Below, piece after piece: positions 3,810-61,482 of a stretch of 64,000 bases of DNA; position 1 is the first letter of the stretch; the number at the start of each line of letters is the position of its first letter. The stretch is taken from positions 1 through 64,000 of IMG/VR virus record IMGVR_UViG_3300045988_168162. One strand, written 5' to 3'. This DNA comes from a virus. The position numbers and the translations under genes were made by a program. Below the pieces are notes generated by a model. It searched no databases. It was not told the DNA's origin and worked only from the letters and a program-made list of their open reading frames with translations.

Positions 3810-4426
3810 TCAATCACCTCGATATCGTTAAAGATTTCAGGATAGACGTCCTGCAGCTCGTGCAGGACGGGGATCATCAGTTCTCGGATAGCAGGGTGGG
3901 CATCCTTGGCGGTGCGCAGGCGCAGGACCTCATGCCACTCGCGCAGGTTCCAGGTACAGACGATCTCGGTTTTTAGGCACAAGGGCAGGACATCACGGGC
4001 TTGCTCCGGGGTGGCACCATTTTTCAGCATGTCCAAATAACACTGTTCCGCTTGCCAACAAGCATCTACCACATCTTTCATCACGATTCCTGTATAACCG
4101 TGGTTGATGATTGTAATTCCGTTATCGAATTTATCCTTGCTGTAATTGCAGTAGCGGGTGGACTCCTGCGCGTAGGAACCGATGCGATGACGGACGATCT
4201 CATTGGCGACACCGCGGTCTGTGATGAATTTGATAGACAGGCTGATATGTTCGATCATGGCATAGTGGTGGTTCTTACAGAGCATTGCGACCATTTTTGC
4301 ATCACTGCCCGGCTTGATGGCACCCTCGCTTTTATAACAGGTACGGGCGATCTGCTCGATACGCGGGAGCGTTACATCACGGTTGAGCGGTGTGATCCAC
4401 TCATGGGATTGCTGTACGATTTTCAA
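3806..4426 (-). CDS. thyX: flavin-dependent thymidylate synthase
   Basis: RHRIGSYAQESTRY matches the ThyX RHRxxSxxxxSxRY motif. TTG start overlapping the upstream stop. Confidence 0.9.
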   Translation of the reverse strand: MKIVQQSHEWITPLNRDVTLPRIEQIARTCYKSEGAIKPGSDAKMVAMLCKNHHYAMIEHISLSIKFITDRGVANEIVRHRIGSYAQESTRYCNYSKDKFDNGITIINHGYTGIVMKDVVDACWQAEQCYLDMLKNGATPEQARDVLPLCLKTEIVCTWNLREWHEVLRLRTAKDAHPAIRELMIPVLHELQDVYPEIFNDIEVIE

Positions 4427-18333: not shown

Positions 18334-18567
18334 CTATTTGAGACGCAGCGCATTGCGTACTGCGAAAAGTTCTTCTGGCGTAGTTGTGATGATGCGGATT
18401 TTACGATTGTAGTCGAGGCTCATCAGGCTGAGCAGACTTTTGGCATTGGCCTGACTGCCGTTGGAATCTATGACCTGAACGTCGATACATTCCTGAGCGA
18501 CGGCCTGCAGGCGCTGACACTGGGCGAAGTAATCGATCTTGGTGATAAAATCATACTGGCCGCTCAT
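18334..18567 (-). CDS. HPr/Crh-like domain protein lacking His15
   Basis: VIDSNGSQANAKSLLSLMSL aligns with the HPr Ser46 region (G-K-x-x-x-A-K-S-l). No His at the N-terminal phosphorylation position. Confidence 0.45.
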   Translation of the reverse strand: MSGQYDFITKIDYFAQCQRLQAVAQECIDVQVIDSNGSQANAKSLLSLMSLDYNRKIRIITTTPEELFAVRNALRLK

Positions 18568-20810
18568 ACAGGTTCACCTCTCTCTGCAAAGAACTGCTTG
18601 CGCAGGGTGATGATGTCATAGCCGCGCTGCTGTTTGTAGTTGCGGAAGTTTTCATCCTGGTTATATTTTTCGCGCAGGAAGCCATAGAAAGCATTCTCGA
18701 CTGCGTCCGTAAGCTGGGCGGTATTTTGGATATAGCCCCAGCGGCGGACAGAATCTGCCACACTGCGCATATGCTTCCATTTGGAGTAGTAATCCGTTTT
18801 GAGCTTGGTCATGAAACCTGCTGCATCCTCGAACACGAAGCCCTCGATATATTCATTCCCATATTTATAGCCGGGCATGCTGGCTTTCGTGTAGAAGTCC
18901 AGGAACTCCTGCCAGGTGTTGAGCGTAGCTACATGCTCCTTGACGGCCAGGAAGAAATCTGCATCATTCTCGGCCAGTTCCTTATAGGGCGTTTTACTGA
19001 ATTTGATCTGATTCTTGACCTTGTCCAAAAGAACCAGATGCTGCGAATTGTACTCGATAATATGCGGATCTTTTACCGGGTCAATGACCTCGTACAGATA
19101 GGTGCTGTCAGAGTCACGCAGGGTCTCTTTGACGCGATTCCAGTTATAGGAATCCTTTTCATACCAGGTCTCGGTAAAGATGTGACGGAAATTCTCGGCA
19201 TAGTCGCCGCCGATGGAACCCTTGGAGCAGAAACGCAGGTCATCGTTGTCAGCATCGTAGCTGAGCAGACCCAGATAGCCGTTCTCTTTACGGTAAACTT
19301 CCACCGGGAATTTCAAATTGGCCTTGAGGTAATCCAGGCTCGTTGTAGCGTGGATGCGCCGCAGCTCATCAATGCGGAAGAACTTTTCATAGCCGCGAGC
19401 TACGATCTTATCCTTGGCTGTATCGATAAACAGGCCGCGGGCAAGAGTTGTGCGCTCGTTCCAGTGCGCATGTTTGAACGCCTGACTGGTGAAGTTGAAG
19501 GCGGAGATATTGCCGAATTTGGATTCCCGCACGTCCGGGTCTTTGCGAAGAGCCTCGACCAGATCAGCGACCGGCGTATCGTGTTTGATCTCCAGCGGCT
19601 TTTCCTCTGGCTTGCGGAATACAGTATTGGGCGTTTCGTGCTGGATGGTATTGCCAAAAGCAAGCTCCACACCGCGCAGGCAGCCGCCAAATTCAATATG
19701 TCCCTCCAGCAGACAACACTTGGAATTATCCGGTAGGATGGGGTAATCCTGGATGTTGCGGTGACCGAAGATATGGATGGTATCGGAATCATGCCAGGAA
19801 TCGATAATGCCCGGCAGGTCCTCGTATTTGCCGACACCGTGGACCATCTGATGCGTAGGAATTTTGATAAGGGCCAGCGGGTCTTTTGTATCAAACTTGG
19901 CAATACCTCCATGGCAAACGAAATAGTCCTGACCTTGGAAATTGAAATAGGCACACTGATGAAGGCGCTGATACAGACGGCTGACGGCCTTTTTATCAAT
20001 ACCGGCTGCGTCCAGTTCTTTGCGGGTGAACTGCTCAAAATCGCGGCTGTTGGCGTTTTGTTCATGCGACCATTTATAGAGCCAGCGCTCGTGGTTGCCT
20101 TCCAGCAGGATCACATTGGGTTTGTCCATGATGGAGAGAAGAAACTGAACGACCTGAACATTTTCAAGGCCGCGGTCAATATAATCGCCGCAGAAGATGT
20201 ACATTTTATCGTCCTGGATACCGCCGATATCGGACAGATACTGTTGCAGACATGTATTGCAGCCGTGAATATCGCCGATTACATGAACTGCCTTGTACTG
20301 ATCAAGGTTCGATTTCTTATAGGAAATTTCTGCAATGGCGTTATCCCGTGTAAGGACCTTGATGCCTGCCGGGATCTTTTGCGTGGCAAAACGGGCGTAC
20401 ATTTTATCAATGACGAATTCCGGCACCTGTTTCATGGGCAGACGGCTTGCATTGCGGCGCTTACATTCCGCAATAGGCAGATTCGTCATATCCACCACGT
20501 AGATGCGGTAGCGGTACTGTTTGGCGAGTGCCTTGTAGCGATTCATCTCAGATGTTTTGGAATTGGTGGCGTCAATGACCGTGAAGCAGCCGTTCTGCAT
20601 ACGGGTTTCGAGCATCTTGAACAGCGTTTCCCAGACGAGTTTATCCTGCTTTTGGCTGATCGTCAGGCTGCCATTTGTTGCCTGGATAGGAGAGGAACAC
20701 TGCATGCGGATTTCATCGGCACTGAGGGCGTACTGCTCCAGCCCATAATTTTTTATGTAGGTGGACTTGCCGCAGCCGGGAGCGCCGCGGAAGAGAAGAA
20801 GCGTTCTCAT
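18564..20810 (-). CDS. polynucleotide kinase-phosphatase-ligase (Pnkp-type RNA repair enzyme)
   Basis: N-terminal P-loop kinase GAPGCGKST. Central calcineurin-type phosphoesterase GDIHGC .. GDYIDRG .. GNHE. C-terminal ligase-like domain with YRKENGYLG (K-x-x-G). Confidence 0.8.
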   Translation of the reverse strand: MRTLLLFRGAPGCGKSTYIKNYGLEQYALSADEIRMQCSSPIQATNGSLTISQKQDKLVWETLFKMLETRMQNGCFTVIDATNSKTSEMNRYKALAKQYRYRIYVVDMTNLPIAECKRRNASRLPMKQVPEFVIDKMYARFATQKIPAGIKVLTRDNAIAEISYKKSNLDQYKAVHVIGDIHGCNTCLQQYLSDIGGIQDDKMYIFCGDYIDRGLENVQVVQFLLSIMDKPNVILLEGNHERWLYKWSHEQNANSRDFEQFTRKELDAAGIDKKAVSRLYQRLHQCAYFNFQGQDYFVCHGGIAKFDTKDPLALIKIPTHQMVHGVGKYEDLPGIIDSWHDSDTIHIFGHRNIQDYPILPDNSKCCLLEGHIEFGGCLRGVELAFGNTIQHETPNTVFRKPEEKPLEIKHDTPVADLVEALRKDPDVRESKFGNISAFNFTSQAFKHAHWNERTTLARGLFIDTAKDKIVARGYEKFFRIDELRRIHATTSLDYLKANLKFPVEVYRKENGYLGLLSYDADNDDLRFCSKGSIGGDYAENFRHIFTETWYEKDSYNWNRVKETLRDSDSTYLYEVIDPVKDPHIIEYNSQHLVLLDKVKNQIKFSKTPYKELAENDADFFLAVKEHVATLNTWQEFLDFYTKASMPGYKYGNEYIEGFVFEDAAGFMTKLKTDYYSKWKHMRSVADSVRRWGYIQNTAQLTDAVENAFYGFLREKYNQDENFRNYKQQRGYDIITLRKQFFAERGEPV

Positions 20811-30321: not shown

Positions 30322-30396
30322 TGGTGCTGGATGCAGGCTACGATCCCGCCTTGCCGGAGTACAAAACCGGGGTTCTACCAAATGAACTAATCCAGC
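30322..30396 (-). tRNA. tRNA-Thr (UGU)
   Basis: Cloverleaf read by eye: acceptor GCTGGAT/ATCCAGC, D arm GTTC/GAAC, anticodon loop TTTGTAC, encoded CCA. T-loop is ATCGTAG (non-canonical). Confidence 0.7.
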
Positions 30397-30403
30397 ATAT
30401 AAA

Positions 30404-30423
30404 CCTCAGATTTGCCGCTGAGG
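30404..30423 (-). terminator. intrinsic terminator after ORF 30438-31019
   Basis: CCTCAG-N8-CTGAGG hairpin followed in minus sense by TTTAT. Confidence 0.5.
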
Positions 30424-30437
30424 AGCCGGTATGTAAA

Positions 30438-31019
30438 TTAAGAGCGTTTATCGAGAACTTTCTCGTCCATGTAAGCATCGATCATTCGTTGCGTTTCTTC
30501 ATACGTGTGCTCACGGGCGTAACGGTTTACGTAGTTGATGCCGACACCCATGATCCTGGCAGCCTCGCGCCCAGTGACAGGAATCCTGTAATAATGTGTG
30601 GTGGATTTATGCTTTGAGTTGAGCCGCGTTGGAATCCAACGGCAATTCTCTGGGCAGTAATCCTTAGAAGAATCAATACGGTCAATGGACAGACCGGGTT
30701 TATACCCGTTTTGTAAAGACCAGAAAATAAATTCATCCGGGTGATAGAGCCATTCATCACAAATTCGGATGCCTTTTGCGCCATAGAATTTATAATCAGA
30801 TGCAGAAGTATCGTAACATCGGTCTTTCATTTTTAAGAAAGTTTTGGTAAGATGAGAATTTGAGACAGATGCTTTGGCAGCATGAATCGTAGGAAATCCA
30901 AAACGATCATAATGCGGGCATGTGTCATTTTTTAAATAATGAAAGTCACCAATAGACCGAATTGTTTTTGTGCCGCAGTAGACGCACTCGCCAACATAAA
31001 GTGTCCGATTGTTTTGCAC
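30438..31019 (-). CDS. homing-endonuclease-like protein (HNH/AP2-related family)
   Basis: MKDRCYD..YKFYGAKGIRICDEW .. F..W .. GYKPGLSIDRIDSSKDYCPENCRWIP, a pattern common in free-standing phage endonucleases. C-terminal HTH-like GREAARIMGVGINYV. Confidence 0.6.
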   Translation of the reverse strand: MQNNRTLYVGECVYCGTKTIRSIGDFHYLKNDTCPHYDRFGFPTIHAAKASVSNSHLTKTFLKMKDRCYDTSASDYKFYGAKGIRICDEWLYHPDEFIFWSLQNGYKPGLSIDRIDSSKDYCPENCRWIPTRLNSKHKSTTHYYRIPVTGREAARIMGVGINYVNRYAREHTYEETQRMIDAYMDEKVLDKRS

Positions 31020-31119
31020 AGATTTATCTATGATTTTGTAAGGACCACAGCGCTCGCCAATATGATTTGTTTTTATTGGAAATCACCTCTTTGAAAAGAA
31101 GACCGAATAGCATTTTAAG

Positions 31120-31193
31120 TGTTCCCGGTGGAAGTCGAATCCACAAATAACAGAACCTAAATCTGCCGCGTCTGCCAATTGAGCCACGGGAAC
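31120..31193 (-). tRNA. tRNA-like gene, anticodon UAG (Leu) but short variable arm and weak D stem
   Basis: Acceptor GTTCCCG/CGGGAAC, anticodon arm GCAGA-TTTAGGT-TCTGT, good T arm GTGGA-TTCGACT-TCCAC, A73. The D stem has only 2 clean pairs. Confidence 0.4.
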
Positions 31194-31469
31194 ATGGCAG
31201 GCTTCCCGCATAGATTATCGAATCACTATCGTCACCGTCATGACCTTCACCATACCATCTTTGCACCGACAACTAGCATTGGCACTAAGCATGTAGGAAG
31301 TGATTTGTTTTCAGCGGACATTGTCATTCTGGGTGAGGCTATCCCATGCGCTCTCACATCGTTCGGGCGCTACCCGACCTCTGGATAAACCAGGCTGGCT
31401 CGAACAGTCACAAACGGGGTCAAAGCCCGTTGCTCTTACCATTAGGGGCGAAAGCTCATTATAAATTGA

Positions 31470-33008
31470 TTATACGAATAAAATACCCGTATTTTTTGCA
31501 ACAAACCTGCACTTTCCTGCTGCAATTTTATTTGTATTTGTATCATAGTACGTTGTTGCTTTTCCATTTCGAGAAGATACAATCCCTTGCATTATATGAA
31601 TTTGCTTTTTGACAAGAAAAATACTTCCTGGATAATTACGGTTCGGATTCCTGTATGTTTGATGATGTTTTTCAACTTTTAGTTTGCAAACAGTATTTTG
31701 ATTTTTTTTACGAAATTCTTCCAAACTATCTACAACCTGTTCAACAGCCTTATGCCGATTAAATGCTACTTTTTTACCATTGAACGTATATATGCGACTC
31801 ATGTTTGCATTATTTAACGCCCTCCTATCGTGACGACGGAACTGTTTAAGTTCATACGGTGCACGACTGTTGATTGTACTATCACAAACATCGTTAGGCA
31901 AAACAGAACAGGCAATGCAATAGGCATCGAGCCAGTGGTCTTTGCTTATACCGTGTGCTGCACGGTAATCGTAGGTGCTTTTTCCCGTTGTTACGAAAAA
32001 GTGCTTTTGAAAAAGAGAACTTAATTCTTTCGTCAGTGCCGGAATGATTTGATTCAATACACTCAAAGCACCATATTTTTTATTGAGTCCTGTTTTCTTT
32101 TTGGCGAGTTTTTCTTGCCATGCAGTATCCTTATGTACGAGGTTATGATGCTTTGCGCATAAGCCAACGATATTGGCAATTGTGTTGCTGCCATTTTTAT
32201 GTTGCGGTACTACATGATGGTAATGTTCAATAGGTTTCTTACAAAACAAGCAGTGCTGTTCCTGCATTTCAGAAACAGCGCTCTCAAGATCCCCTTTTTG
32301 ATAGAGTGGACCCTGTTGGTACTGCCACTTCTTGATAACGGGATTATCAAGCTGCATGAAAGCAAATTTGTTAACCTCAAGCACAACATCACTGATGGGA
32401 AGGAATTTTTGAATTTTCTTAACCAAGTTGATGTGTGTTTTGAGCAACTGATTTGCAGTAGGCGTAAGCCAGCCTTCCGGTCTTGTGCGATTGTTGAACT
32501 TTGCTTCTTTGTTCTTGATGCCAATGCAAAGGACTTCTTTCTCGCAACCCGGAAGATGGCGCTTAATGACGCCAATTTCTTTTGCACGCTTGCTGACGCT
32601 GCCATTTTGGGCAGTGTCTTGCTTCACGCACTTTTTAGAAATAGTGCCATTGGCTTTTGCTCTCCGCTGACGACGGCATCGTCTACCATTGGTACGTCTT
32701 GCACGGCGGGAATCCTTACGCTTTTTCATCAATTTCGGAATTTCCTTGTTACGGGTTTCCAGATGTGCGGTAAAGACTGCCGTGCCGTCCGTTTTAACAA
32801 CAGCAACACCGATATTGGTTCTGCCGGGGTCGATGCCCAAGTAAAGCGGTTGCACCACATCGTCAGTTTCATACAACAGTTGAATGGTAAACGGCTTTGT
32901 TCTTACGGCTCGTGCTTTCTGCTCTTTAAGAAGATGGCGTACATGCCCACAGCGAGTCGTAGGCATTAAAGGTTTACCGTCTTTATTAAGCACATATACA
33001 GTGGACAT
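31470..33008 (-). CDS. iscB: IscB RNA-guided nuclease (512 aa)
   Basis: PLMP motif (DGKPLMPT), RuvC-I LGIDPGRTNIG, Arg-rich bridge helix RRARRTNGRRCRRQRR, HNH (CLFCKK..HHVVP..N..LCAKHHNLVH), RuvC-III DHWLDAYC. ATG 33008 follows AAAGGAGG. Confidence 0.85.
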   Translation of the reverse strand: MSTVYVLNKDGKPLMPTTRCGHVRHLLKEQKARAVRTKPFTIQLLYETDDVVQPLYLGIDPGRTNIGVAVVKTDGTAVFTAHLETRNKEIPKLMKKRKDSRRARRTNGRRCRRQRRAKANGTISKKCVKQDTAQNGSVSKRAKEIGVIKRHLPGCEKEVLCIGIKNKEAKFNNRTRPEGWLTPTANQLLKTHINLVKKIQKFLPISDVVLEVNKFAFMQLDNPVIKKWQYQQGPLYQKGDLESAVSEMQEQHCLFCKKPIEHYHHVVPQHKNGSNTIANIVGLCAKHHNLVHKDTAWQEKLAKKKTGLNKKYGALSVLNQIIPALTKELSSLFQKHFFVTTGKSTYDYRAAHGISKDHWLDAYCIACSVLPNDVCDSTINSRAPYELKQFRRHDRRALNNANMSRIYTFNGKKVAFNRHKAVEQVVDSLEEFRKKNQNTVCKLKVEKHHQTYRNPNRNYPGSIFLVKKQIHIMQGIVSSRNGKATTYYDTNTNKIAAGKCRFVAKNTGILFV

Positions 33009-33240
33009 ATACGCCACCTCCTTTACGATAAGTCTCCCCTGCCGAAGCGGGAGGTTATGTTTCCCTTGGCTAGGTAGCAGCTTAGTAGTGTTGCAAGCTG
33101 GGAAAACCTGCAAGTACATCTGCTATCTTGATGTACAAAAGTACATCTGCCTGTGATATTGAAGGAACTTAGTGGAATGATATTATTTTATTAAAGTTCT
33201 TCAATACCCTACGACGATGTGCCGTTTCGGAAACCCGGAT
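33009..33240 (-). ncRNA. candidate IscB omega-RNA (HEARO-like) scaffold
   Basis: 232-nt non-coding leader immediately 5' of iscB with several hairpins (GATGTAC-TTTT-GTACATC; TAGCAG..CTGCTA; CTCCCGC-TTCG-GCAGGGGAG). The position matches known IscB omega-RNAs. Boundaries unknown. Confidence 0.45.
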
Positions 33241-33317
33241 GGAACTGGAGGGCCTCGAACCCAAAATCATAATCCCAGTTATGAGCTGGACGCACTAACC
33301 ATTTGTGCTACAGTTCC
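33240..33317 (-). tRNA. tRNA-Met/Ile2-type (CAU)
   Basis: Acceptor GGAACTG/CAGTTCC, D arm GCAC/GTGC, anticodon loop CTCATAA. The T stem is weak (3 clean pairs) and the variable region is 9 nt. Confidence 0.55.
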
Positions 33318-33409
33318 TTATAAAATGGTTCCGTTTTTATCCTTAACGGTTTCCGTAACAGATAAGTAAGAATGAAACAAATATAGAAGGAGGGGGATAC
33401 CAGCCCCCA

Positions 33410-33485
33410 TGGTCGAATAGGCGAAACTCGAATTCGCGGCCTCTTGCTCCCAGGGCAAGCGTTCTACCAGCTGAACTACTACTCG
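33410..33485 (-). tRNA. tRNA-Pro (UGG)
   Basis: All four stems are clean (CGAGTAG/CTATTCG, GTTC/GAAC, CTTGC/GCAAG, GCGAA/TTCGC), encoded CCA. The anticodon loop CCTGGGA has C at position 33. Confidence 0.8.
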
Positions 33486-34030
33486 ATAATAAGAGAGAAC
33501 CTACCCCTGGATGACTCGAACGTCCGTTTTCAGCCTGCGCTGCTGTCCTTGCCTATTAGACGAAGCGGCAAGCTCTCTCTGAATTGGATTGAAAGTGTTT
33601 TCTTCTTGGCTCCCATTTCTATAGCCAGGATTCCGATAGTGGCGAACTATCCTAGGTGTTGGTTTATCTGCTAATGTTTACAGACTCTATAGCAGACCAC
33701 ATGCGAGTGGTGAAACCTTTGGCACCTGCCGGTTATCTGCAGGCACACGCTTTCAATCTTGGCGGGGCACTATCCCCAGCCTGTTGGTGGGACCTGGACC
33801 TTGCGGCCAGCCCCCGAGTTGTGCGAGACCTAGATCTGAGCGAGGCGAATCCTGCCTTTGCCGTTTGGCATCTCGCGGTAACGGAACCTGAATTCATGCG
33901 GATTTCACTGGGCGATATCTAATAAATAGACACCGAAACCGTTCATCATCCGAAGCAGCTGGATTCCGTTTTGCCCTGATTCCGGCTTTCGGCAGGTGAT
34001 CGGCCTGCTATAGAACCAGGGCAATGGTGC
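33486..34030 (-). ncRNA. long structured non-coding region between tRNA-Pro and RNA module B
   Basis: No credible ORF. Many local and long-range helices, e.g. 33971-33978/34017-34024 (8 bp), a GNRA-capped hairpin at 33794-33810, and a tRNA T-arm-like GGACG-TTCGAGT-CATCC at 33509-33525. Confidence 0.4.
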
Positions 34031-34319
34031 GGAATGAATCTTGACCAGACAGCCCGCGATTGGTATGTATAATGCAATGGGTGTGGCGCATGGTCTGGGT
34101 GACAAATTTGAACACTCGGATATGACCTGAGTGTGGCGCGTGTTGCAAGGGAATTCTCGTGCCTGGAGGCAGCTGCACATTTCGATTATACTGACAAAGT
34201 AGTGGCATAATCCACTGGACAACCTGGGCCGTGACTGTCATTAACCCTTGGCAGAAACCAGGTATTACTTTCGCGAGAATCCTGTGGCGCTGCTGTGCGC
34301 TGTTGGTAAGATTCATTCC
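34031..34319 (-). ncRNA. copy B of the conserved structured-RNA module, closed by a 12-bp helix
   Basis: GGAATGAATCTT (34031-34042) pairs with AAGATTCATTCC (34308-34319). The conserved module GGGTGACAAATTTGAACACTCGGATATGACCTGAGTG lies at 34097-34133. Abuts tRNA-Gly. Confidence 0.5.
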
Positions 34320-34321
34320 GT

Positions 34322-34396
34322 TGGAGCGGCTGAGGGGCGTCGAACCCCCGTCCCCAGCTTGGAAGGCTGGTATACTGGCCGTTGTACGACAGCCGC
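34322..34396 (-). tRNA. tRNA-Gly (UCC)
   Basis: Acceptor GCGGCTG/CAGCCGC, anticodon arm CCAGC-CTTCCAA-GCTGG, T arm GGGGG-TTCGACG-CCCCT, encoded CCA. Confidence 0.85.
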
Positions 34397-38325: not shown

Positions 38326-39792
38326 TTATAATAGGGGAGCATTGTGCTCCTGCATAAAAAGTTCTGCGTTTCGGCGCAGGAGACAGGGATCATTTTGGAA
38401 CTTGCCATCTACCACGCATTGCAGAAGATGGTTAAAGCATTGGCCGAACAAAGGGCCAGGACGATAGCCCATCTCCATAAGATCATGACCATTGATGTGC
38501 AGGTCCTGGATGGAGAGCTTGCGCCCCTCGAAAATTGCGATAGCGAGATACAGGTATGTGATTTCGGCCTTGCGCATAGCGTTCATAGTGCCAAACTTGG
38601 TATAATCGACACCGTGGGCGTAGAGATCAGCAAAACGGACAGCCATAAGCAGCTGGGCATTGACAGGACCAAGAGCGGCCAGCAGACGATTGGCACAGCG
38701 GACGGTGGGTTCAAATTGGCGGTCGTGGTTTTTGATGAGCAGGACGATCCGTTCCCGTTCCGCGTTAGAAAACTTGAGGCGGCGAAGAATGTCATCGGCA
38801 AGTTCGGCACTTTTTTCAGCATGGCCGTAAAAGTGGCCGGTGCCGCCATCATCGACCGTATAGCATACTGGTTTGGCAATATCATGCAAAAGCATCGTTA
38901 TGCAGAGCTCGAACCAGTGAGCGTGGATAGCAGCGGTAAACTCGGGGAGTTTTTGGGTGACGCTCTTCAGTTCCACGACAGACTTTAGAATATGATCTTG
39001 CACGGTGTAGATATGATAGGGACTGTGCTGCTGAAAATCACGACTGAGATAAAGTTCCGGGATAATTTCTTCCAGTACGTCGATATAATCGAAAAGAAGC
39101 AGACTGAAATCATCGTGCTCATAGCTGGAGGTGAAGATTTTGCGGAGTTCGGACTGTACACGTTCGGCGGAAAGACCGACAAGCATCTGAACATTCGCAT
39201 GAATTGCTGCTTCGGTTTGTACATCGATCGTCAAATCATAGCTGACGGCAAAGCGCAGGGCACGTAAGATACGCAGAGGGTCCTCCTGGAAGCGTTTGTT
39301 AGGGTCACCAACGCATTTGATGAAATTGCTGCACATATCCGCATAGCCTTTAAAGGGGTCGACGATCCCAATCGTGTAAGTGCCTTCTTGGGATGCATCA
39401 TCATTCGGTAAAATTCTGCCAGCGATGGCATTCATGGTGAAATCACGGCGGGCAAGATCTTCTGTGATATCATCGACAAACTCGACCGTATCAGGATGGC
39501 GGTGGTCTTTGTAAATGCCGTCTTTACGCATGGTTGTGACTTCGTACTGGCCGTCCGGCATGATAACTGTAACAGTGCCATGCTTGATGCCGGTATCAAT
39601 GGTAGGAGAGAAGAGAGATTTTACCGTGGTTGGGTCGGCCTGGGTGACAACATCATAATCGTGCGGTGTTTTATCGAATAGAATGTCCCGCATACAGCCA
39701 CCAACAAGGTAGGTTTTATAACCGGCACCTTCTAACTGGAGGACAAGGGTAACAAGATCATGCGGCAGGGGGATACCTTGTAGTACAGGCAT
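38326..39792 (-). CDS. cca: tRNA nucleotidyltransferase (CCA-adding enzyme) with HD-like region
   Basis: Head-domain motif LVGGCMRDILFDKTPHDYDV, RRDFTMNA, and a later LLHDIAKP HD-type motif. Confidence 0.8.
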   Translation of the reverse strand: MPVLQGIPLPHDLVTLVLQLEGAGYKTYLVGGCMRDILFDKTPHDYDVVTQADPTTVKSLFSPTIDTGIKHGTVTVIMPDGQYEVTTMRKDGIYKDHRHPDTVEFVDDITEDLARRDFTMNAIAGRILPNDDASQEGTYTIGIVDPFKGYADMCSNFIKCVGDPNKRFQEDPLRILRALRFAVSYDLTIDVQTEAAIHANVQMLVGLSAERVQSELRKIFTSSYEHDDFSLLLFDYIDVLEEIIPELYLSRDFQQHSPYHIYTVQDHILKSVVELKSVTQKLPEFTAAIHAHWFELCITMLLHDIAKPVCYTVDDGGTGHFYGHAEKSAELADDILRRLKFSNAERERIVLLIKNHDRQFEPTVRCANRLLAALGPVNAQLLMAVRFADLYAHGVDYTKFGTMNAMRKAEITYLYLAIAIFEGRKLSIQDLHINGHDLMEMGYRPGPLFGQCFNHLLQCVVDGKFQNDPCLLRRNAELFMQEHNAPLL

Positions 39793-55845: not shown

Positions 55846-56190
55846 TGTGTGATGTAAGCTGATAAGGTGGCTGCCTGGACCAGGAGGTGGTCCCAACTCG
55901 TTATTCAGAAGCTGCTGCTCAATTTTAGGAAGTCCTGGTACGATTTTCTGGGTACGAAGCACTGTTGATTGGACGTGTAAGTGAGCTAATCGCTATGGAC
56001 TCTGACGCTTTTGCCAGTCGTTAGTTGGCAGTAAACTCTGAATCTTCGCTGAAGAATCACTAGGATCGCGATGGCCATCGGCGACTCGCCGATCGTGGTG
56101 GGTGGACTGGGTAACAAATTCATACTCTCGGATATGACCTGAGAGTTTTTGCCTTGAACTACAAAGCAAAAGTAAACCTTACATAACACA
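55846..56190 (-). ncRNA. copy C of the structured-RNA element (345 nt) downstream of the RT gene
   Basis: Closed by a 13-bp inverted repeat with one mismatch (56178-56190 vs 55846-55858). Conserved module at 56109-56146. Same 5' layout as copy D. Confidence 0.55.
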
Positions 56191-56208: not shown

Positions 56209-56382
56209 CATTTCTGCGGCATTACCGAGCGCTCCAGATGGGGGTCTGAAGCGCCGGCAAGAAAGGAAGAAAAAATGAACAAGGGCTGCATGGAATCACC
56301 ACAAACCATGCGCCCGGTGGCCGGACGAACAACCGAAAGAAAGGAAGAAACGGCTGAAGCGCCCGGTAACACCGCAGAAACG
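56209..56382 (-). other. structured spacer between the RT stop and RNA copy C
   Basis: About 24-nt imperfect inverted repeat (56209-56232 vs 56359-56382). It encloses two direct copies each of AAGAAAGGAAGAAA (56259, 56337) and CTGAAGCGCC (56246, 56354). Confidence 0.45.
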
Positions 56383-56398: not shown

Positions 56399-57589
56399 TC
56401 AAGCTGCTTTGGGCTTGAGATCGTCAGAGATACAGGTGAGAAGATCGGCACCATATCTGGCGTTGTACTTTTGGATGACACCGGCAATGGTGGCGGGTTC
56501 TACACTAAGGTAGTAGCTGATATTGCCGCGGAACTTTTGGAGATCCTCTTCGTCCCATTTTTTGCCGTTGCGGCGGTCTTTGAAATAGGTTTCGATGGTA
56601 GCTTTAAGGATTTTGTGGTTTCGATAACCAACGGTAATATCGCCATCCTTATTGAGCATCAGACCGAGCATCCAGTTACGACCGGCGCGGGTGCCGAAGT
56701 GGGTCTTTTCGGTATTCAAGGTAAAGGGAGCATCGAGTTCATGAAGCATGGCGATCAGTTCCCGCTCGACCTTGCGGTAGTTGAAGAAGACCCGGCAGGA
56801 GATATGAATATCATCGGCATAGCGGGTGTAACAGATGCGGTCTGTGATGGGCGTGCCATCTGGGTTGACTTTGCCGCTTTGGAACTGGTTGAGCAGGCGG
56901 GCAAACTTATGGTCGAAGGGAATCATCATGACATTGGTGATGAAAGGGGAGAACGGGGTGCCCTGTGGCAGGCCGTTATTGAGAAACGCCAGGCTTAAAG
57001 CGCGGCGAAGCTCCCTGCGGCCGGTGGGGTCTGCCAGGATCAGGTTGAAGGGATAGATCTCTTCCATCTGTTTGAAGACAAAGTGCGGTGTGGTGGATGG
57101 GAAAAAGCCGTGGAAATCATAATGGCAGAAGTACCAGCTGCGGAACCGCTGATGCTTGATAACGGCATCCTTGGTGGAGCGGCCATTGACATAGGCAAAA
57201 GCGCAGGTGTGGTGGTCGGCAAACATCCAGCCGGACATCATATCCTTGAGCTGAGCCAATGCCTTTTTGAGTTCCGGGTGCGGGGCATCAATGGGACGCA
57301 TCTTGCCGCCGGTCTTTTTCGGGATCTCGAAATGATCGTAGAGTTCCCATTTGTTGGGGTAATCGATCAGATCCTTATAGCAGGTATTGAACATCTTGAG
57401 CTGGCTGATCATGGCGTCCAGGCAAGTGATTTTCATAATGCGCTCAGGAACTTTGTCGCATACAACGGTGCGGGTGGAGCCGTGACCGCCGGAACGTAAG
57501 GAATCCAGCGGAATATCGACACCGAGCATAAGTTCCTCGAACGTGATTTGACGAACGGTTTCGGGGGTATTGTAAGTTATGTATACCAT
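56399..57589 (-). CDS. reverse transcriptase, retron/Abi-like type (396 aa)
   Basis: FEIPKKTGGKMRPIDAP (RT1-2), NGLPQGTPFSPFITN (RT4), YTRYADDIHIS (YADD box in a retron-like context). Start at MVYITYN (ATG 57589). The longer track ORF runs into structured non-coding RNA. Confidence 0.85.
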   Translation of the reverse strand: MVYITYNTPETVRQITFEELMLGVDIPLDSLRSGGHGSTRTVVCDKVPERIMKITCLDAMISQLKMFNTCYKDLIDYPNKWELYDHFEIPKKTGGKMRPIDAPHPELKKALAQLKDMMSGWMFADHHTCAFAYVNGRSTKDAVIKHQRFRSWYFCHYDFHGFFPSTTPHFVFKQMEEIYPFNLILADPTGRRELRRALSLAFLNNGLPQGTPFSPFITNVMMIPFDHKFARLLNQFQSGKVNPDGTPITDRICYTRYADDIHISCRVFFNYRKVERELIAMLHELDAPFTLNTEKTHFGTRAGRNWMLGLMLNKDGDITVGYRNHKILKATIETYFKDRRNGKKWDEEDLQKFRGNISYYLSVEPATIAGVIQKYNARYGADLLTCISDDLKPKAA

Positions 57590-57607
57590 AGTGGTGTACC
57601 TCGATTG

Positions 57608-57944
57608 TGTTTGTGATCTTGAAGGAATGATGCTGATCTTGCGAAGCTGATCAGCTTCCTGGATTAGCTCCATACAGTGGTGGAATTGGCTTAAAACTCC
57701 AATCAGACAACTGACTGATGTCCAATCTGCGGCTGCCAAGTCTATTACATGACCAATCGACATCGATTGCCCGCTAAGTTAGCTTAAAATGCCCTTGATG
57801 TGAGCGGCGGAACTCGGCGATTCTTGTGGCACCCCCAGATGCGCCTGGCGCGTGCCTGCCCGGTCTGGGTAACAAATTCGTACTCTCGGATATGACCTGA
57901 GAGTCGTTGCGATTTACAAAATGCAACGGTAAACATCACAAACA
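57608..57944 (-). ncRNA. copy D of the structured-RNA element (337 nt) immediately upstream of the RT (retron msr-msd-like position)
   Basis: Closed by a perfect 10-bp inverted repeat (57935-57944 vs 57608-57617) that ends 19 nt before the RT ATG. Conserved module at 57867-57904. TATAAT box at about 57968. Confidence 0.55.
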
Positions 57945-57993
57945 AATTTAAATTACAAAGTGTATTATACGGACGATATATTACATAGTGATA

Positions 57994-58677
57994 TTACATG
58001 GCCGTGATAGCTCCTTCCGTGTCGAGATTGAAAGGCGCAACCAGGATCAAATCCTTGATCTTGCCATCCGTGACAAACTTTTGGAAGTTGATAACGGTCA
58101 TGGTGGCAGCCATGCGAACCGTGGGCGCTACACCAAGGACCTCGCCACAGGCGGAACGGGGCACCTCAGCGGTCGCTTCCTCGTGGGTGAAGTTCATACT
58201 GTCGAGCAGTGCTTTCTTGGCCTGCGGGTCACGCCAGTCGGCTGCATAAAGCTGGGCATCAAACAATGCCGTGCGGACATCAAACATCGCCTTGATATTG
58301 GCGTTGTACTGATTGCGCTTGACAATGTCGCGCCGGATCGCAATATCATCCACGGCCAGGAACACATAGCCTGCCAGCGGCTCACCATGCCAGCCATCGG
58401 GTTTGACCTTGACGGTTTCATTACAGGTCAGATTGATATTACCAAGAATATCTCGCAAGGCATCGACCTTTTTCATGCCGACATGGTCATCGAAGAACAT
58501 CTGGTTGACGAGGTTTTTCTCCTCGACCTTGTCCATATCCCAAAGGGTGAACTTGGTGAGACCGTAGCGGGCCAGCAGCTCGGCGATGGTAGAACCGACA
58601 GAACCGCAGCCAATAATGTGAATGGGAGCGGTGATCTTGGCGGGGTCGAAAACCTCGCGGCTCTTATTTAAATTCAT
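57994..58677 (-). CDS. ThiF/MoeB/E1-like adenylyltransferase (227 aa)
   Basis: Rossmann IIGCGSVGS plus DMDKVEEKNLVNQ. Start at MNLNKSRE after AGGAGGTCCCCG. Confidence 0.75.
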   Translation of the reverse strand: MNLNKSREVFDPAKITAPIHIIGCGSVGSTIAELLARYGLTKFTLWDMDKVEEKNLVNQMFFDDHVGMKKVDALRDILGNINLTCNETVKVKPDGWHGEPLAGYVFLAVDDIAIRRDIVKRNQYNANIKAMFDVRTALFDAQLYAADWRDPQAKKALLDSMNFTHEEATAEVPRSACGEVLGVAPTVRMAATMTVINFQKFVTDGKIKDLILVAPFNLDTEGAITAM

Positions 58678-59296
58678 CGGGGACCTCCTGACCGTAGGTG
58701 TACCAATCGTACTGCTTATAGTGGTTGTACTGGTTGAAATAGATGGGCGGCTGAACGACCGGCAGCGATTCGACCTTGACCATGGTTTTGACTTCATCCA
58801 GGAAGGACGGGTCAAAAGTATCGTAGGTAAGAAGAACTTCGTCCTGTTCACGAATCGTGCCATGATCGTAGATGTGGGCTGTGTAGTAGAGATCCTTGTT
58901 CCAGATCATGAAGATATAGAACTGGTTATCCGGGATGTGGCGTTCCTCCTGGCTTTGGATATCCGTACCGGAGGGGTGCGTGTCCATATAGACGTGGCTG
59001 TGACCGTGGTAGTGCAGGTCATCAAAGTTGGGATGCTCAAAGTACCAGCGGCCATATTCCTCCTGATCGACCACCACCGTAGCAGCGGTGACCGTTTGCG
59101 GATAGACCGTGATATCATAGACCTCCCAGCCATCCTGGATGGGGCGGGTAAGACCATGCCAGCCGATTTCGGTGTTATACTCGTTCAGCAGAGCGAGCTG
59201 TTTGTTCCAGGCATTGGCCGTGAAGTGGATATGAATGGGTTTCTTTGCGGGTGCCTTGACGGCGGGGGCCTTTTCATTCGGGCTCGTTTTGGACAT
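58664..59296 (-). CDS. JAB/MPN (JAMM) metalloprotease-like protein
   Basis: EIGWHG .. HSHVYMDTHPSGTD matches E..HxH-x7-S-xx-D. Overlaps the E1-like gene by 14 nt. Confidence 0.75.
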   Translation of the reverse strand: MSKTSPNEKAPAVKAPAKKPIHIHFTANAWNKQLALLNEYNTEIGWHGLTRPIQDGWEVYDITVYPQTVTAATVVVDQEEYGRWYFEHPNFDDLHYHGHSHVYMDTHPSGTDIQSQEERHIPDNQFYIFMIWNKDLYYTAHIYDHGTIREQDEVLLTYDTFDPSFLDEVKTMVKVESLPVVQPPIYFNQYNHYKQYDWYTYGQEVPDEFK

Positions 59297-59299
59297 GGC

Positions 59300-60673
59300 T
59301 TACGCCTCCTTTCCGTTCATTTCATCACAGACGATCTGCATGGCTTCCTTGAATGTGATATCGGTGCCATCTTGCGTGCGGATGACCTTGCCACTGCCGA
59401 GAACCAGCTGCTGCGTAACACGACCCATGGCCCAAGTCTCAGACAGGGACACATTGGATGCGCTTTGCTGCGTGATAGCCAGGGCAGCGATATAATCATG
59501 GTTGCGCTCGGCATCTGCAAGATCGCCTGCATAGCCGCCCAGGCAGGTGGCAAAAGCGATATGCGGGTTATTGATATAGTCCGCAGCAATAGGCTCCATG
59601 GGATCATCGGCTTCCACAGCGTGGACAGCGGCATCTCTGTTGATGATGTAAGTGGCGGCCATCTTGATCGTGAACCGATGATCAACAAAGACAGCGCGGT
59701 AGAACGCGGTCATCTGATCGTTATCATACGGGTTATCGATTTCATGGGAGCCGCGGCCGATGCTGGAATAACCATCGAGAACGTCAGGGTAGTTCAGCAC
59801 ATAAGAATCGACCATGTCCTCATCATAACAGGAGAGGGTGGTGAGCACCGTGTACTGGATATAACCACTGCCGATGCCGATATGATCGATACGGAATCCG
59901 CCGCTGCGCAGGTAATCATAGATTTCCTGGCGAAGCTGATTCGTGTCGGTTTTGCGAAGGTAGGCAATCTTTGCGTTGTACTCTGCAATGAGACGAAGAT
60001 GATCGGAGATGCGGCGCTGGTAGCTCTTGATCTCTTGTTCGGCTTCCTCGATATTGCGGGAGGCGGAGCGGATCTGATCAGCCTGTGCGTTGACGGTGAT
60101 CTCCTGGGCGGCAGAACGATACTCGATCATATCGTAAGCGTACTTAGCGATAAAGGAAGCCGTGGCGTCCCAGAAATCTTTGCGCGATGCTGCGTTATCT
60201 TTTTGACTGATCTTGTAGACCAGCTGAAGCAGCGCGTATTCATCGGGCTGAAGCTTCTGTTCACCCTCGAACAGCCAGGGCAGGAGCATGGGGATGGCAC
60301 TAATCACACGAAGCCAGATCGCATGGCGTGGACGTACCGCCTGGTCAACATTCACGACGGCCCTGCGCTTATCGGGCAGGATAAAGACCTTGCTGTGCTC
60401 CGGGGCGATATAGTTTTCAAGCCGGGTCACACTGGTAAGGTTACTGGTAACAGGGAACGGAACCGTCCTGAGATAAAGGAACTCCGCATCCGTATCACCG
60501 TTATGGCCGTTTTCAAGATGAAGCGTTTCCGTTCTGGGGGCAACCACACACATCCAGACGGCCTGGAGGACGAGCAGATCATCACCGCTGACGGCGTAAT
60601 ACTGGTCACTGGTGAACCGCCCCTGCATGGAGCTTTCAAACGCTTTCGAGAGGATTCTTTCGTTGATTTCCAA
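59300..60673 (-). CDS. hypothetical protein of the E1/JAB cassette (457 aa)
   Basis: Central coiled coil. C-terminal NNPHIAFATCLGG loosely recalls an E2 HPN..C active-site loop (speculative). Confidence 0.5.
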   Translation of the reverse strand: MEINERILSKAFESSMQGRFTSDQYYAVSGDDLLVLQAVWMCVVAPRTETLHLENGHNGDTDAEFLYLRTVPFPVTSNLTSVTRLENYIAPEHSKVFILPDKRRAVVNVDQAVRPRHAIWLRVISAIPMLLPWLFEGEQKLQPDEYALLQLVYKISQKDNAASRKDFWDATASFIAKYAYDMIEYRSAAQEITVNAQADQIRSASRNIEEAEQEIKSYQRRISDHLRLIAEYNAKIAYLRKTDTNQLRQEIYDYLRSGGFRIDHIGIGSGYIQYTVLTTLSCYDEDMVDSYVLNYPDVLDGYSSIGRGSHEIDNPYDNDQMTAFYRAVFVDHRFTIKMAATYIINRDAAVHAVEADDPMEPIAADYINNPHIAFATCLGGYAGDLADAERNHDYIAALAITQQSASNVSLSETWAMGRVTQQLVLGSGKVIRTQDGTDITFKEAMQIVCDEMNGKEA

Positions 60674-60705
60674 AACGGAAACACTCCTTTCTTTAAGCAG
60701 CGGAC

Positions 60706-60978
60706 TTAGCCGCGGCAGGCGTTATCCTGCTTGGGGATGTTGAGCATGTAGAAGCTGGTGGCGGTGTTGATCTTCTCGAAATTATCGGCGAACCAGCGGA
60801 TGGGCTTGTCCAGGTTTTCCTCGCCCAGAGCGATGCCGTTGAAATTCGTCTGGCCGACATGGTAGTCAACGCCGAACTGATCCAGCAGCTGACGGGGCGT
60901 GGTGGTGTCCACAGAGATGGGGGCGGACTCGTGACGATCGAAAGAAGTGCCGACTTTAACCTTGATGATGCTTTCCAT
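60706..60978 (-). CDS. small protein ending in Gly (90 aa), possible beta-grasp/ubiquitin-like partner
   Basis: Start at MESIIKVKVG after AAAGGAGA. Terminal residues ..NACRG. Ubl size and position in the cassette. Fold not verifiable here. Confidence 0.4.
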   Translation of the reverse strand: MESIIKVKVGTSFDRHESAPISVDTTTPRQLLDQFGVDYHVGQTNFNGIALGEENLDKPIRWFADNFEKINTATSFYMLNIPKQDNACRG

Positions 60979-61062
60979 AAAACTTGTCTCCTTTGAAATA
61001 TACATTTATTTTGTGATTTTATACAGTGTTTGTATGCGGGCTTTGGATGTAAAAGAGGGGGA

Positions 61063-61482
61063 TCAGCCCTCTGCGGTGGTGTCCTCGGCGTTGGCTTCAC
61101 CGGTCAGTTCCCGGATGAAGGCGGCCTTGCGATCCTTTTCATTCTGGACAGCGGTGGTGGCGGTGGCCTCGATCTCGTCCAGCTTGGCCTTGGCAGCGCC
61201 GACCTTATCAAAGATCTCGTTCAGCTGCTCATCTGCGGGCTTATTGGTGTCCAGCGTGTAGGTCAGGACGGCCTTGCCATCGCGGGTCTTGTTGGCGAAA
61301 ACGATGCCGTACTGGCTGATGCTGCCCATGGTGCCGCCGGTTTTGACAACGAACTGGACGTCGCCGTCCTTATCCTTGATGGCCAGGGCGTCGGGATTCT
61401 GCTTCTCCAGCAGTTTGATGTCGTCCAGCGACAGGGTGGAGATGAGGTCGAAAGTGGTTGCGTTCAGGGTGATCTTAGACAT
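61063..61482 (-). CDS. hypothetical protein (139 aa), first gene of the E1/JAB cassette
   Basis: ORF with Ala/Lys/Glu-rich C-terminal half. Confidence 0.5.
   Translation of the reverse strand: MSKITLNATTFDLISTLSLDDIKLLEKQNPDALAIKDKDGDVQFVVKTGGTMGSISQYGIVFANKTRDGKAVLTYTLDTNKPADEQLNEIFDKVGAAKAKLDEIEATATTAVQNEKDRKAAFIRELTGEANAEDTTAEG

Follow-up and report, generated by a model that had tools for sequence, protein, structure and literature searches.

We analysed a 64,000-nucleotide stretch of viral DNA, positions 1 to 64,000 of IMG/VR record IMGVR_UViG_3300045988_168162 (hereafter the window), with respect to a cassette of five genes at 57994-61482 and the reverse transcriptase (RT) gene next to it. 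The cassette-bearing virus is a human-gut phage. Minus-strand genes of the window encode a PolIII-alpha-type polymerase, NrdD, a polynucleotide kinase (PNK)/RNA ligase, a CCA-adding enzyme, a DnaB-like helicase and Ant-like proteins, and four tRNAs are present. The phage setting assumed in an initial annotation of the sequence is thus borne out and, by gene content, the phage is a large tailed one. The five cassette open reading frames (ORFs) all lie on the minus strand at 57994-61482, as described initially for a co-directional and tightly packed gene set. Read in their own direction, they encode an orphan protein of 139 residues (protein A), a ubiquitin-like protein (Ubl) of 90 residues, a large orphan protein of 457 residues (BIG), a JAMM/JAB metalloprotease (JAB) and a ThiF/E1-like adenylyltransferase (E1). 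Protein A and Ubl are separated by 84 nt, Ubl and BIG by 32 nt and BIG and JAB by 3 nt, and the JAB and E1 genes overlap by 14 nt. The same gene set recurs in more than 100 independent loci and is therefore far beyond chance. The full module reads (small ORF)-A-Ubl-BIG-JAMM-E1, followed by a structured non-coding RNA (ncRNA), a retron-like RT and further copies of the ncRNA. A megablast search with the whole locus against 50,697 phage records gave no match, a tblastn search with E1 gave a single match to an unannotated faecal phage record, and A, Ubl, BIG and JAB had no match in PHROGs.

E1-like and JAMM/JAB enzymes of the cassette

The last gene of the cassette (58677-57994, minus strand) encodes a minimal E1-like adenylyltransferase of 227 residues. 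Its start (MNLNKSR) was fixed by homologs and by exact database matches, while the raw ORF extends to 58863. The protein matches Pfam ThiF with E=2.8e-20 (72.9 bits, cutoff 28.1) and contains the nucleotide-binding motif GCGSVGS, which confirms the ThiF/E1 assignment made initially. Its nearest relatives in the PDB are UBA5, TcdA, MccB and MoeB. The GxGxxG motif, the Mg-binding Asp110 and Cys177 are kept in 114-115 of 115 sequences. Judged by these motifs, E1 belongs to the ThiF/MoeB superfamily and has kept its nucleotide site intact, along with an invariant candidate catalytic cysteine. Among models of defence proteins the best matches are Cap2-like (PADLOC E1-E2, 6e-17; NCBIfam 6A-MBL cap2_3, 2e-16). 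The E1 sequence is identical to GenBank DAD70102.1, annotated as "E1 enzyme family protein [Siphoviridae sp. ct3o911]", whose neighbours are annotated as hypothetical only, and the identical sequence is present on 203 contigs.

The JAMM/JAB gene (59296-58664, minus strand; 210 residues) carries the motif E43...H99-S-H101-x7-S109-xx-D112, which is invariant among 119 distinct homologs. Taken as a single sequence, the protein is only weakly recognized (PADLOC JAB, 2.6e-4, 19 bits). A family profile of 23 sequences searched against the PDB matched Rpn11 and CSN5 only (E=3e-3). Motif and profile together uphold the JAMM/JAB assignment and make the protein a predicted Ubl-maturing, possibly also deconjugating, peptidase. 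The Pfam families Prok-E2 and Prok-JAB, to which the initial annotation had pointed, do not apply, since Prok-E2, Prok_Ub and Prok-JAB match none of the five proteins.

A beta-grasp protein with a C-terminal alanine and its partner protein A

The 90-residue protein (60978-60706, minus strand) starts at MESIIKV, as fixed by homologs and exact database matches. It had been proposed as a beta-grasp candidate, and fold prediction agrees with this proposal. The AlphaFold2 (AF2) model, built from a 16-sequence alignment, has a mean predicted local distance difference test (pLDDT) score of 80, with the tail residues 86-90 below 50 and disordered. The top Foldseek matches in the PDB are SUMO, ISG15, ubiquitin and Atg5 only (TM 0.5-0.68). 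Across the family, the conserved terminus is ...K-x-D-[N/G]-Ala, with Gly in place of Asn in ~10% of the tails. About one third of the members bear 1-5 residues past the alanine (A, R, C, CRG, LAL and others), and the protein in the window ends in ...KQDNA followed by CRG. The terminal glycine, to which the initial annotation had given functional weight, is thus a lineage-specific residue within the CRG of the window clade, and the family end is alanine.

Protein A (61482-61063, minus strand) has no relatives in Pfam or the PDB, and comparisons with the PDB, with E2 enzymes (hhalign probability 0.4%), with BIG and with Ubl showed no similarity. Residues S15, F62 and E105 are invariant in the family. 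In at least 8 loci, plus the distant loci L009 and L010, Ubl is fused to protein A, with A at the C-terminus. At the fusion junction (...DNA|A-x-I-x-I-x-G), the part following DNA equals the start of the standalone protein A minus its methionine, so the simplest reading of these sequences is that JAMM would cut exactly after the alanine. A parallel is provided by the Ubl-E2 precursor BubAB, which was shown experimentally to be cleaved by a JAB peptidase (10.1101/2024.11.21.623953). Protein A can be regarded as an obligate partner of Ubl and is a candidate adaptor, substrate or serine-based carrier. The A-Ubl pair is tandemly duplicated in two loci (L104, 713-2209; L105, 2010-3504).

Directly upstream of gene A lies a small conserved ORF of 38 residues (61664-61548, minus strand; MFTIHYRRGHYEVYLDRQFFCSADSIREAYHEIEAARS) with the pattern GHYE-x-Y...F-x-SAD...EA-x-x-E, which is reminiscent of a single YegP/DUF1508-type repeat. 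Homologs are found in the same place in L004/L005, L007 and the L014 clade, and a hidden Markov model (HMM) detects the ORF in 46 of 128 loci. By this conservation, the ORF is a putative, optional seventh protein of the module. A promoter-like site (61832-61804, minus strand) is located upstream of it.

BIG is an orphan family with an invariant Asp, His and Cys

BIG (60673-59300, minus strand) is the largest protein of the cassette. In the AF2 model (pLDDT 93), an alpha/beta domain at the N-terminus is followed by a long coiled-coil hairpin and then by a C-terminal domain, which holds the invariant residues D284, H371 and C377. The family is unannotated and comprises 1215 representative clusters (50% identity) at E<=1e-3. 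Its best-conserved residues are located in the NPH-x5-C loop, where H371 is kept in 121 of 123 and C377 in 122 of 123 distinct homologs. This loop had been described as loosely E2-like (NPH-x5-C-L). The motif itself stands, since its His and Cys are conserved; the E2 likeness found no support in profile or fold searches. Foldseek against the PDB gave no significant structural neighbour (best E=0.58), and the sole match in BFVD was one uncharacterised Siphoviridae protein. An hmmsearch of the PDB with the family profile yielded coiled-coil noise only. No Pfam match was obtained with 76 family members, nor with the C-terminal domain alone at E<=10. By hhalign, neither five canonical E2 enzymes (probability 0.5%) nor BIG's own N-terminal domain matched. 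The order of elements in the C-terminal domain (helix, two strands, insert, two strands, NPH loop, Cys, helices) would be consistent with a UBC core that has acquired an insert, which we do not count as evidence. BIG is therefore a candidate Ubl acceptor or ligase by context only.

A retron-like reverse transcriptase and structured RNAs follow the cassette

Downstream of E1 and on the same strand lies a gene for an RT of 396 residues (57589-56399, minus strand). Alignment places its start at 57589 (MVYITYN), correcting an earlier start at 57763, the limit of the raw ORF. E1 and RT are consequently separated by a spacer of 404 nt (57590-57993); in related loci the spacer typically measures 290-400 nt (median 391). 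The RT is far nearer to retron RT models than to models of group II intron RTs or defence-associated RTs (DRTs). The match to the NCBIfam retron St85 RT model reaches E=1.8e-50 and 172 bits, and PADLOC RT_II-A gives 3.9e-45. The YADD motif and the other catalytic residues are kept in 114-118 of 118 homologs, and on the strength of these motifs the RT is predicted to be active.

The E1-RT spacer contains a structured RNA. Copy 1 in the window (57929-57873, minus strand; W 4072-4128 in a heuristic scan) comprises hairpin 1 (CCGTTGCA..TCGCAACG), hairpin 2 (CTCTC-AGGTCATATCC-GAGAG) and a tail (TACGAATTTG). Copy 2 lies downstream of RT (56172-56109, minus strand), where hairpin 2 and the tail are as in copy 1 and hairpin 1 differs. 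A 49-nt direct repeat flanks RT, with 56104-56152 being 92% identical to 57862-57910, and such a repeat between the spacer and the region after RT is found in 51 of 91 loci. Between copy 2 and the RT stop, a highly structured region of 226 nt (56398-56173, minus strand) is closed by a 27-bp inverted repeat (56211-56237 / 56354-56380) and has a minimum free energy of -86 kcal/mol.

In the family the RNA has a common design: a variable hairpin 1, usually a single junction G, hairpin 2, and the tail UAACAAnUUGA. Hairpin 2 reads CUUCuCGC...GCgGAAG in most clades and CUCUC...GAGAG in the window. A covariance model built from six sequences was used to scan 1.3 Mb on both strands and returned 118 copies, all of them on the coding strand. 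Of the alignment cells at paired positions, 99.1% are paired, compared to 73.8% in shuffles and 44-51% in slid controls, the first of these values being somewhat inflated because the alignment was fitted to the covariance model. Compensatory double changes were found in 336 cells compared to 82 in shuffles, and 13 of 14 pairs covary. The 69 distinct hairpin-1 sequences are hard to explain other than by a real structure. The heuristic scan identified 119 RNA modules, of which 75 are located between E1 and RT (median 44 nt past the E1 stop), 38 after RT and 5 elsewhere in the loci. Single loci contain up to five modules with differing hairpin 1 and downstream sequence (L092, 7692-10432; L108, 7719-11183). 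The multiple copies suggest that several distinct RNAs are served by one RT. The variable parts of both window ncRNAs gave no meaningful match to the rest of the window.

The module is conserved and moves as a block between phages

The census of related loci was anchored on E1, the most conserved part of the module (50% identity where BIG shows ~20%). This search gave 184 matches in IMG/VR, of which 80 loci were kept, and a further 59 loci in GTDB genomes. The latter are all contigs of metagenome-assembled genomes (MAGs), mostly from gut Oscillospiraceae, Lachnospiraceae, Christensenellaceae and other Clostridia. HMMs of the cassette proteins were run on the six-frame ORFs of all loci, 107 of which had enough flanking sequence. 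JAB and BIG were present in 107/107 of these loci, A in 105/107, RT in 103/107 and Ubl in 102/107. The order A-Ubl-BIG-JAB-E1-RT is found in 89/107; Ubl and A occur as Ubl-A fused in one ORF in 7/107, and the A-Ubl pair is duplicated in 2/107. Distant BIG homologs (35-44%, ~20% identity) had the same neighbours in five of five contexts, including a ThiF gene and then an RVT_1 gene.

As a control for synteny, we compared 2660 pairs of loci with an E1 (ThiF) identity below 60%. ThiF and RT are common to 100% of these divergent pairs and BIG to 95%, whereas any of the three upstream ORFs is common to 0.9% and any of the three downstream ORFs to 0.8%. With flanks shared in less than 1% and module genes in 95-100% of the pairs, the unit moves as a block through differing phage backgrounds. 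The initial annotation had left open whether the proximity of the RT is functional; it is, as RT and structured RNA are conserved components of one mobile module, and the RT belongs to the system.

Several variants of the module were observed. A tRNA gene lies between Ubl and BIG in 30 of 119 loci, being tRNA-Leu(UAA) in 23 of those (examples are L114, 3690-3949; L065, 3915-4002; and L069, L106, L108, L056, L076, L121 and L122), and 95 further tRNA genes lie within 3 kb downstream of RT, some interleaved with RNA modules (e.g. L108). The window has no tRNA at either place. In a distant branch, BIG and JAB are separated by an inserted gene for a DHH/DHHA1-type phosphoesterase (L009, 9410-10345; L010, 2263-3198; L150, 7299-8261), and in L009 and L150 a gene for a single-stranded DNA-binding protein is found a few kb upstream. 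On a 244-kb Oscillospiraceae MAG contig (L149, 5424-7984) the whole module is fragmented and apparently pseudogenised. A few kb upstream of the module, L007 carries a tyrosine integrase (990-1883) and L004 a RelB/YafQ toxin-antitoxin pair (2000-2531), which hints at a temperate lifestyle of at least some of the carrying phages and at an accessory region as the site of the module.

A proposed Ubl cascade coupled to the reverse transcriptase

The analysis shows which genes make up the module, how Ubl, JAMM and E1 fold and which motifs they carry, that RT and RNA are linked to the cassette, and how the RNA is structured, whereas everything said below on chemical steps, target and biological role is inferred. 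The reading that we cautiously prefer, and judge slightly better than even, is that the five genes form the protein half of a mobile phage module that also contains the retron-like RT and the structured RNA, and that they constitute a cascade of Ubl maturation, activation and transfer. It is prompted by the co-occurrence of a conserved Ubl tail, a protease suited to expose this tail, an intact E1 with an invariant Cys and the Cys-His-Asp set of BIG. The identities of E1, JAMM and Ubl likewise support the earlier idea of an apparatus for Ubl conjugation or deconjugation.

In this cascade, JAMM would cut Ubl after ...K-x-D-N-Ala, shedding CRG in the window protein and splitting the Ubl-A fusions in relatives, as the logic of the sequences suggests. 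E1 would then adenylate the exposed C-terminal carboxylate and, by analogy with the chemistry of its family, probably form a thioester on Cys177. Ubl may next move to BIG, where H371 and D284 would help Cys377 to accept it, with BIG in the place of a canonical E2; this step is suggested by gene context only. Finally, Ubl would be attached to a target, with protein A acting as an obligate partner (adaptor or substrate) or as a carrier via Ser15. The RT would copy the ncRNA or ncRNAs, whose 5' handle is the conserved pair of hairpins. The resulting complex of RT and nucleic acid might then sense or gate the protein module, as such complexes do with the effectors of retrons, or might itself be acted on by it. 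The strict coupling to RT and RNAs fits this retron logic. Because its flanks are variable, the module is presumably an accessory, conflict-type system, which could serve in superinfection exclusion, in defence of the lysogen or in counter-defence.

A number of observations weigh against this interpretation. No target, E3 or toxic effector domain is recognisable in the module. A C-terminal Ala instead of Gly is unusual for an E1 substrate, and BIG, having no similarity to E2s or other known enzymes, could instead be a Cys peptidase or an effector. With 172 bits, the RT stays under the curated retron cutoff of 235. The RNA copies in the window score poorly against the family model R2 (copy 2 has the correct architecture at 6.7 bits, E=0.81); they represent a diverged subtype, which we assigned from its architecture and the 49-nt repeat. 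A scan of the RT flanks with Rfam found neither a retron RNA nor any other match, and when the 5' flank of each RNA module was paired in the a1/a2 manner with the sequence preceding RT, cognate (-16.1 kcal/mol) and non-cognate combinations (-14.5 kcal/mol, p=0.003) differed little. The evidence for the module comes entirely from comparison, and the census depends on a single ThiF subfamily in metagenomic contigs of related gut phages.

Comparison with known systems

Several known systems share parts with the module. Bil (BilABCD, bacterial ISG15-like) has no E3 and encodes its beta-grasp Ubl as a separate protein, next to an E1, a JAMM/JAB peptidase and a protein for transfer that bears a Cys (10.1101/2024.11.21.623953). 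The module resembles Bil in all of these parts and in its setting of phage-host conflict. However, E1 of the module is a minimal single domain of 227 residues, whereas Bil E1 has the architecture IAD-AAD-CYS. The transfer candidate BIG is an orphan without UBC similarity, and Ubl ends in Ala where the Bil protein ends in Gly. The module moreover adds an obligate protein A, the RT and the ncRNA, and is encoded by phages, while Bil is located in bacterial defence islands. With Bub (6E / DUF6527) the module shares a Ubl fusion precursor for JAB to cut (BubAB and Ubl-A, respectively) and an extra protein that has a novel fold and combines a nucleophile with a His. In contrast to Bub, its proteins have no DUF6527 or E2 match in Pfam, E1 keeps an invariant Cys where Bub relies on oxyesters of Tyr and Ser, JAB and E1 each have their own gene, and RT and ncRNA are attached.

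Among retrons, the St85/Sen2 group (type II-A) is nearest. The best matches of the RT are retron RTs; directly upstream of it, and on the same strand, is a structured ncRNA, and genes for accessory proteins are tightly linked. The RT differs from retron RTs in scoring under the curated cutoffs and in an N-terminal extension of ~90 residues, and the RNA in belonging to no Rfam family and in occurring in one to five copies on both sides of RT. The five-protein Ubl module matches no retron effector type found in the literature searched, and to our knowledge it fits none. Type II CBASS (cyclic-oligonucleotide-based anti-phage signalling) combines an E1-type adenylation enzyme with a JAB peptidase in Cap2/Cap3, by which an immune pathway is regulated, and the best defence matches of E1 are Cap2-like. 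However, PADLOC detects neither a CD-NTase nor an effector in the proteins of the cassette or in the RT, E1 has one domain only and is not an E1-E2 fusion, and the module has a dedicated Ubl where CBASS uses the C-terminus of the cyclase. Lastly, PRTRC cassettes also unite ThiF, JAB and small and large proteins of unassigned function on a mobile element, but all PRTRC HMMs failed with the module, which has no ParB and possesses RT and ncRNA.

Alternative explanations

The initial annotation had called the cassette PRTRC-like. According to this explanation, a plasmid or integrative and conjugative element (ICE) cassette with ParB- and ThiF-related genes would be found in the phage by chance, with the RT as an unrelated neighbour. 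The general list of parts (ThiF, JAB, a small Ubl-like protein and proteins of unassigned function) is indeed common to both, and PRTRC_ThiF is among the weak matches of E1 (E=1.4e-4). This match, however, scores 21.3 bits against a cutoff of 144.75 (TIGR03736), and the PRTRC A-F models of NCBIfam have no match in any of the five proteins at E<=0.1, which effectively excludes the label at the level of HMMs. Neither the cassette genes nor the conserved module of the 107 loci include a ParB-related gene, and the RT is linked in 103 of the 107 loci despite unrelated flanks. We therefore regard a chance PRTRC cassette as very improbable. Equally improbable is a biosynthetic pathway of the sulfur-carrier type (ThiS/MoaD-ThiF, CysO-Mec+) or of the type of peptides made on ribosomes and altered after translation (RiPPs; MccB-like), carried as auxiliary metabolic genes. 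JAMM-processed sulfur carriers exist, and models of ThiF and MoeB head the NCBIfam matches of E1 (E=1e-19 to 1e-9). Yet these matches cover only ~70 residues and are far under the cutoffs, the best ThiF model reaching 70.9 bits against 159. Ubl has no GG tail and ends in D-N-A, a ThiG, MoaE, CysM or rhodanese partner is missing from the module, and the actual partners are RT, ncRNA and two orphan proteins. A sulfur-transfer function is thereby effectively excluded. The initial annotation had also raised the possibility of counter-defence. Here, JAMM, perhaps together with a decoy Ubl and E1, would strip or poison Cap2-CD-NTase or Bil conjugates as a stand-alone function, separate from the RT. 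In favour of such a role, the cassette is phage-borne and the Rossmann part of E1 resembles Cap2-type E1-E2 proteins. However, deconjugation alone needs no Ubl of its own with an invariant tail, no E1 with an intact active site, no BIG and no protein A, and these four are conserved with RT and RNA as one module. Since RT and RNA belong to the same conserved module, the cassette is more likely to function together with the RT than to act by itself against CBASS or Bil, and we consider the stand-alone role improbable.

Two further possibilities retain a Ubl cascade but change its chemistry. The roles of the orphan proteins could be swapped, so that protein A would be the E2-equivalent carrier, using a Ser15 oxyester as in Bub, and BIG would be a Cys-His(-Asp) peptidase or an effector. 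Ubl-A fusions mirror the Ubl-E2 fusion BubAB, which is cleaved by JAB; the E2 of Bub uses Ser/His/Asp, and Bub operons carry a second, novel peptidase. Correspondingly, A has a single invariant nucleophile, S15, and BIG has a D/H/C triad. On the other hand, A lacks similarity to E2s, its Ser is located at residue 15, which is unlike the topology of E2s, and E1 keeps its invariant Cys while Bub E1 has no catalytic Cys. This makes a swap unlikely. Alternatively, Ubl (or A) could be joined to nucleic acid, the acyl-adenylate or thioester being resolved by a hydroxyl or amine of the complementary DNA (cDNA) or RNA of the RT. Related chemistry is carried out by the ThiF relatives MccB, which forms a peptidyl-nucleotide, and TcdA, which acts on tRNA; both are among the nearest solved relatives of E1. 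E1 is strictly coupled to RT and ncRNAs, the invariant D-N-A tail of Ubl lacks G-G, a DHH/DHHA1 phosphoesterase occurs in some variants and tRNA genes in many relatives. However, the likeness to MccB and TcdA is limited to the shared Rossmann core, the Gly that replaces Asn in ~10% of the tails is contrary to the Asn-specific chemistry of MccB, and the invariant Cys of BIG suits an ordinary thioester relay. Joining of this kind thus appears quite improbable. A broader form of coupling, in which activated Ubl (or A) would be joined to a cDNA/RNA handle or the cDNA would switch conjugation on, is doubtful as well, about as much as the swap of A and BIG.

Relation to published work

No paper that connects an RT or a retron to genes for ThiF, JAB or Ubl turned up in the literature that could be searched, coverage of which was incomplete. 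The module is widespread and undescribed in this literature. Its components are of known kinds; new is the combination of a retron-like RT, multi-copy structured RNAs, a Ubl cascade in which no E2 can be recognised, an Ala-terminated Ubl and two orphan families. In public annotation the parts appear as "E1 enzyme family protein", "molybdopterin/thiamine biosynthesis adenylyltransferase" or "hypothetical", and the present analysis corrects a likely mis-filing as PRTRC or as a thiamine/molybdopterin biosynthesis adenylyltransferase. The Ubl systems Bil, Bub and Cap2/Cap3 on the one hand and retrons on the other have been handled as separate fields, which this module joins, with a complete set of proteins for maturing and activating a Ubl and with parts that travel together between phages of gut Clostridia. 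It offers a testable case of what retron-type RTs regulate, of Ubl cascades that work with no recognisable E2 and of an E1 that would use a C-terminal Ala. Should RT and Ubl indeed be coupled, two machineries never before seen together would act in one pathway in common human-gut phages; if Ubl were joined to cDNA or RNA, the product would be a programmed protein-nucleic acid conjugate.

Other features of the window

Elsewhere in the window, the minus strand encodes a PNK/phosphatase/RNA-ligase fusion (18564-20810), a CCA-adding enzyme (38326-39792) and the tRNAs (30325-34396). Together, the fusion protein, the CCA-adding enzyme and the phage's own tRNAs look like a kit for the repair and replacement of tRNAs as used against anticodon nucleases. 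Within the tRNA cluster, Rfam identifies a DUF3800-XI RNA at 33765-33814 (minus strand) with 44.3 bits, compared to a gathering score of 37.8.

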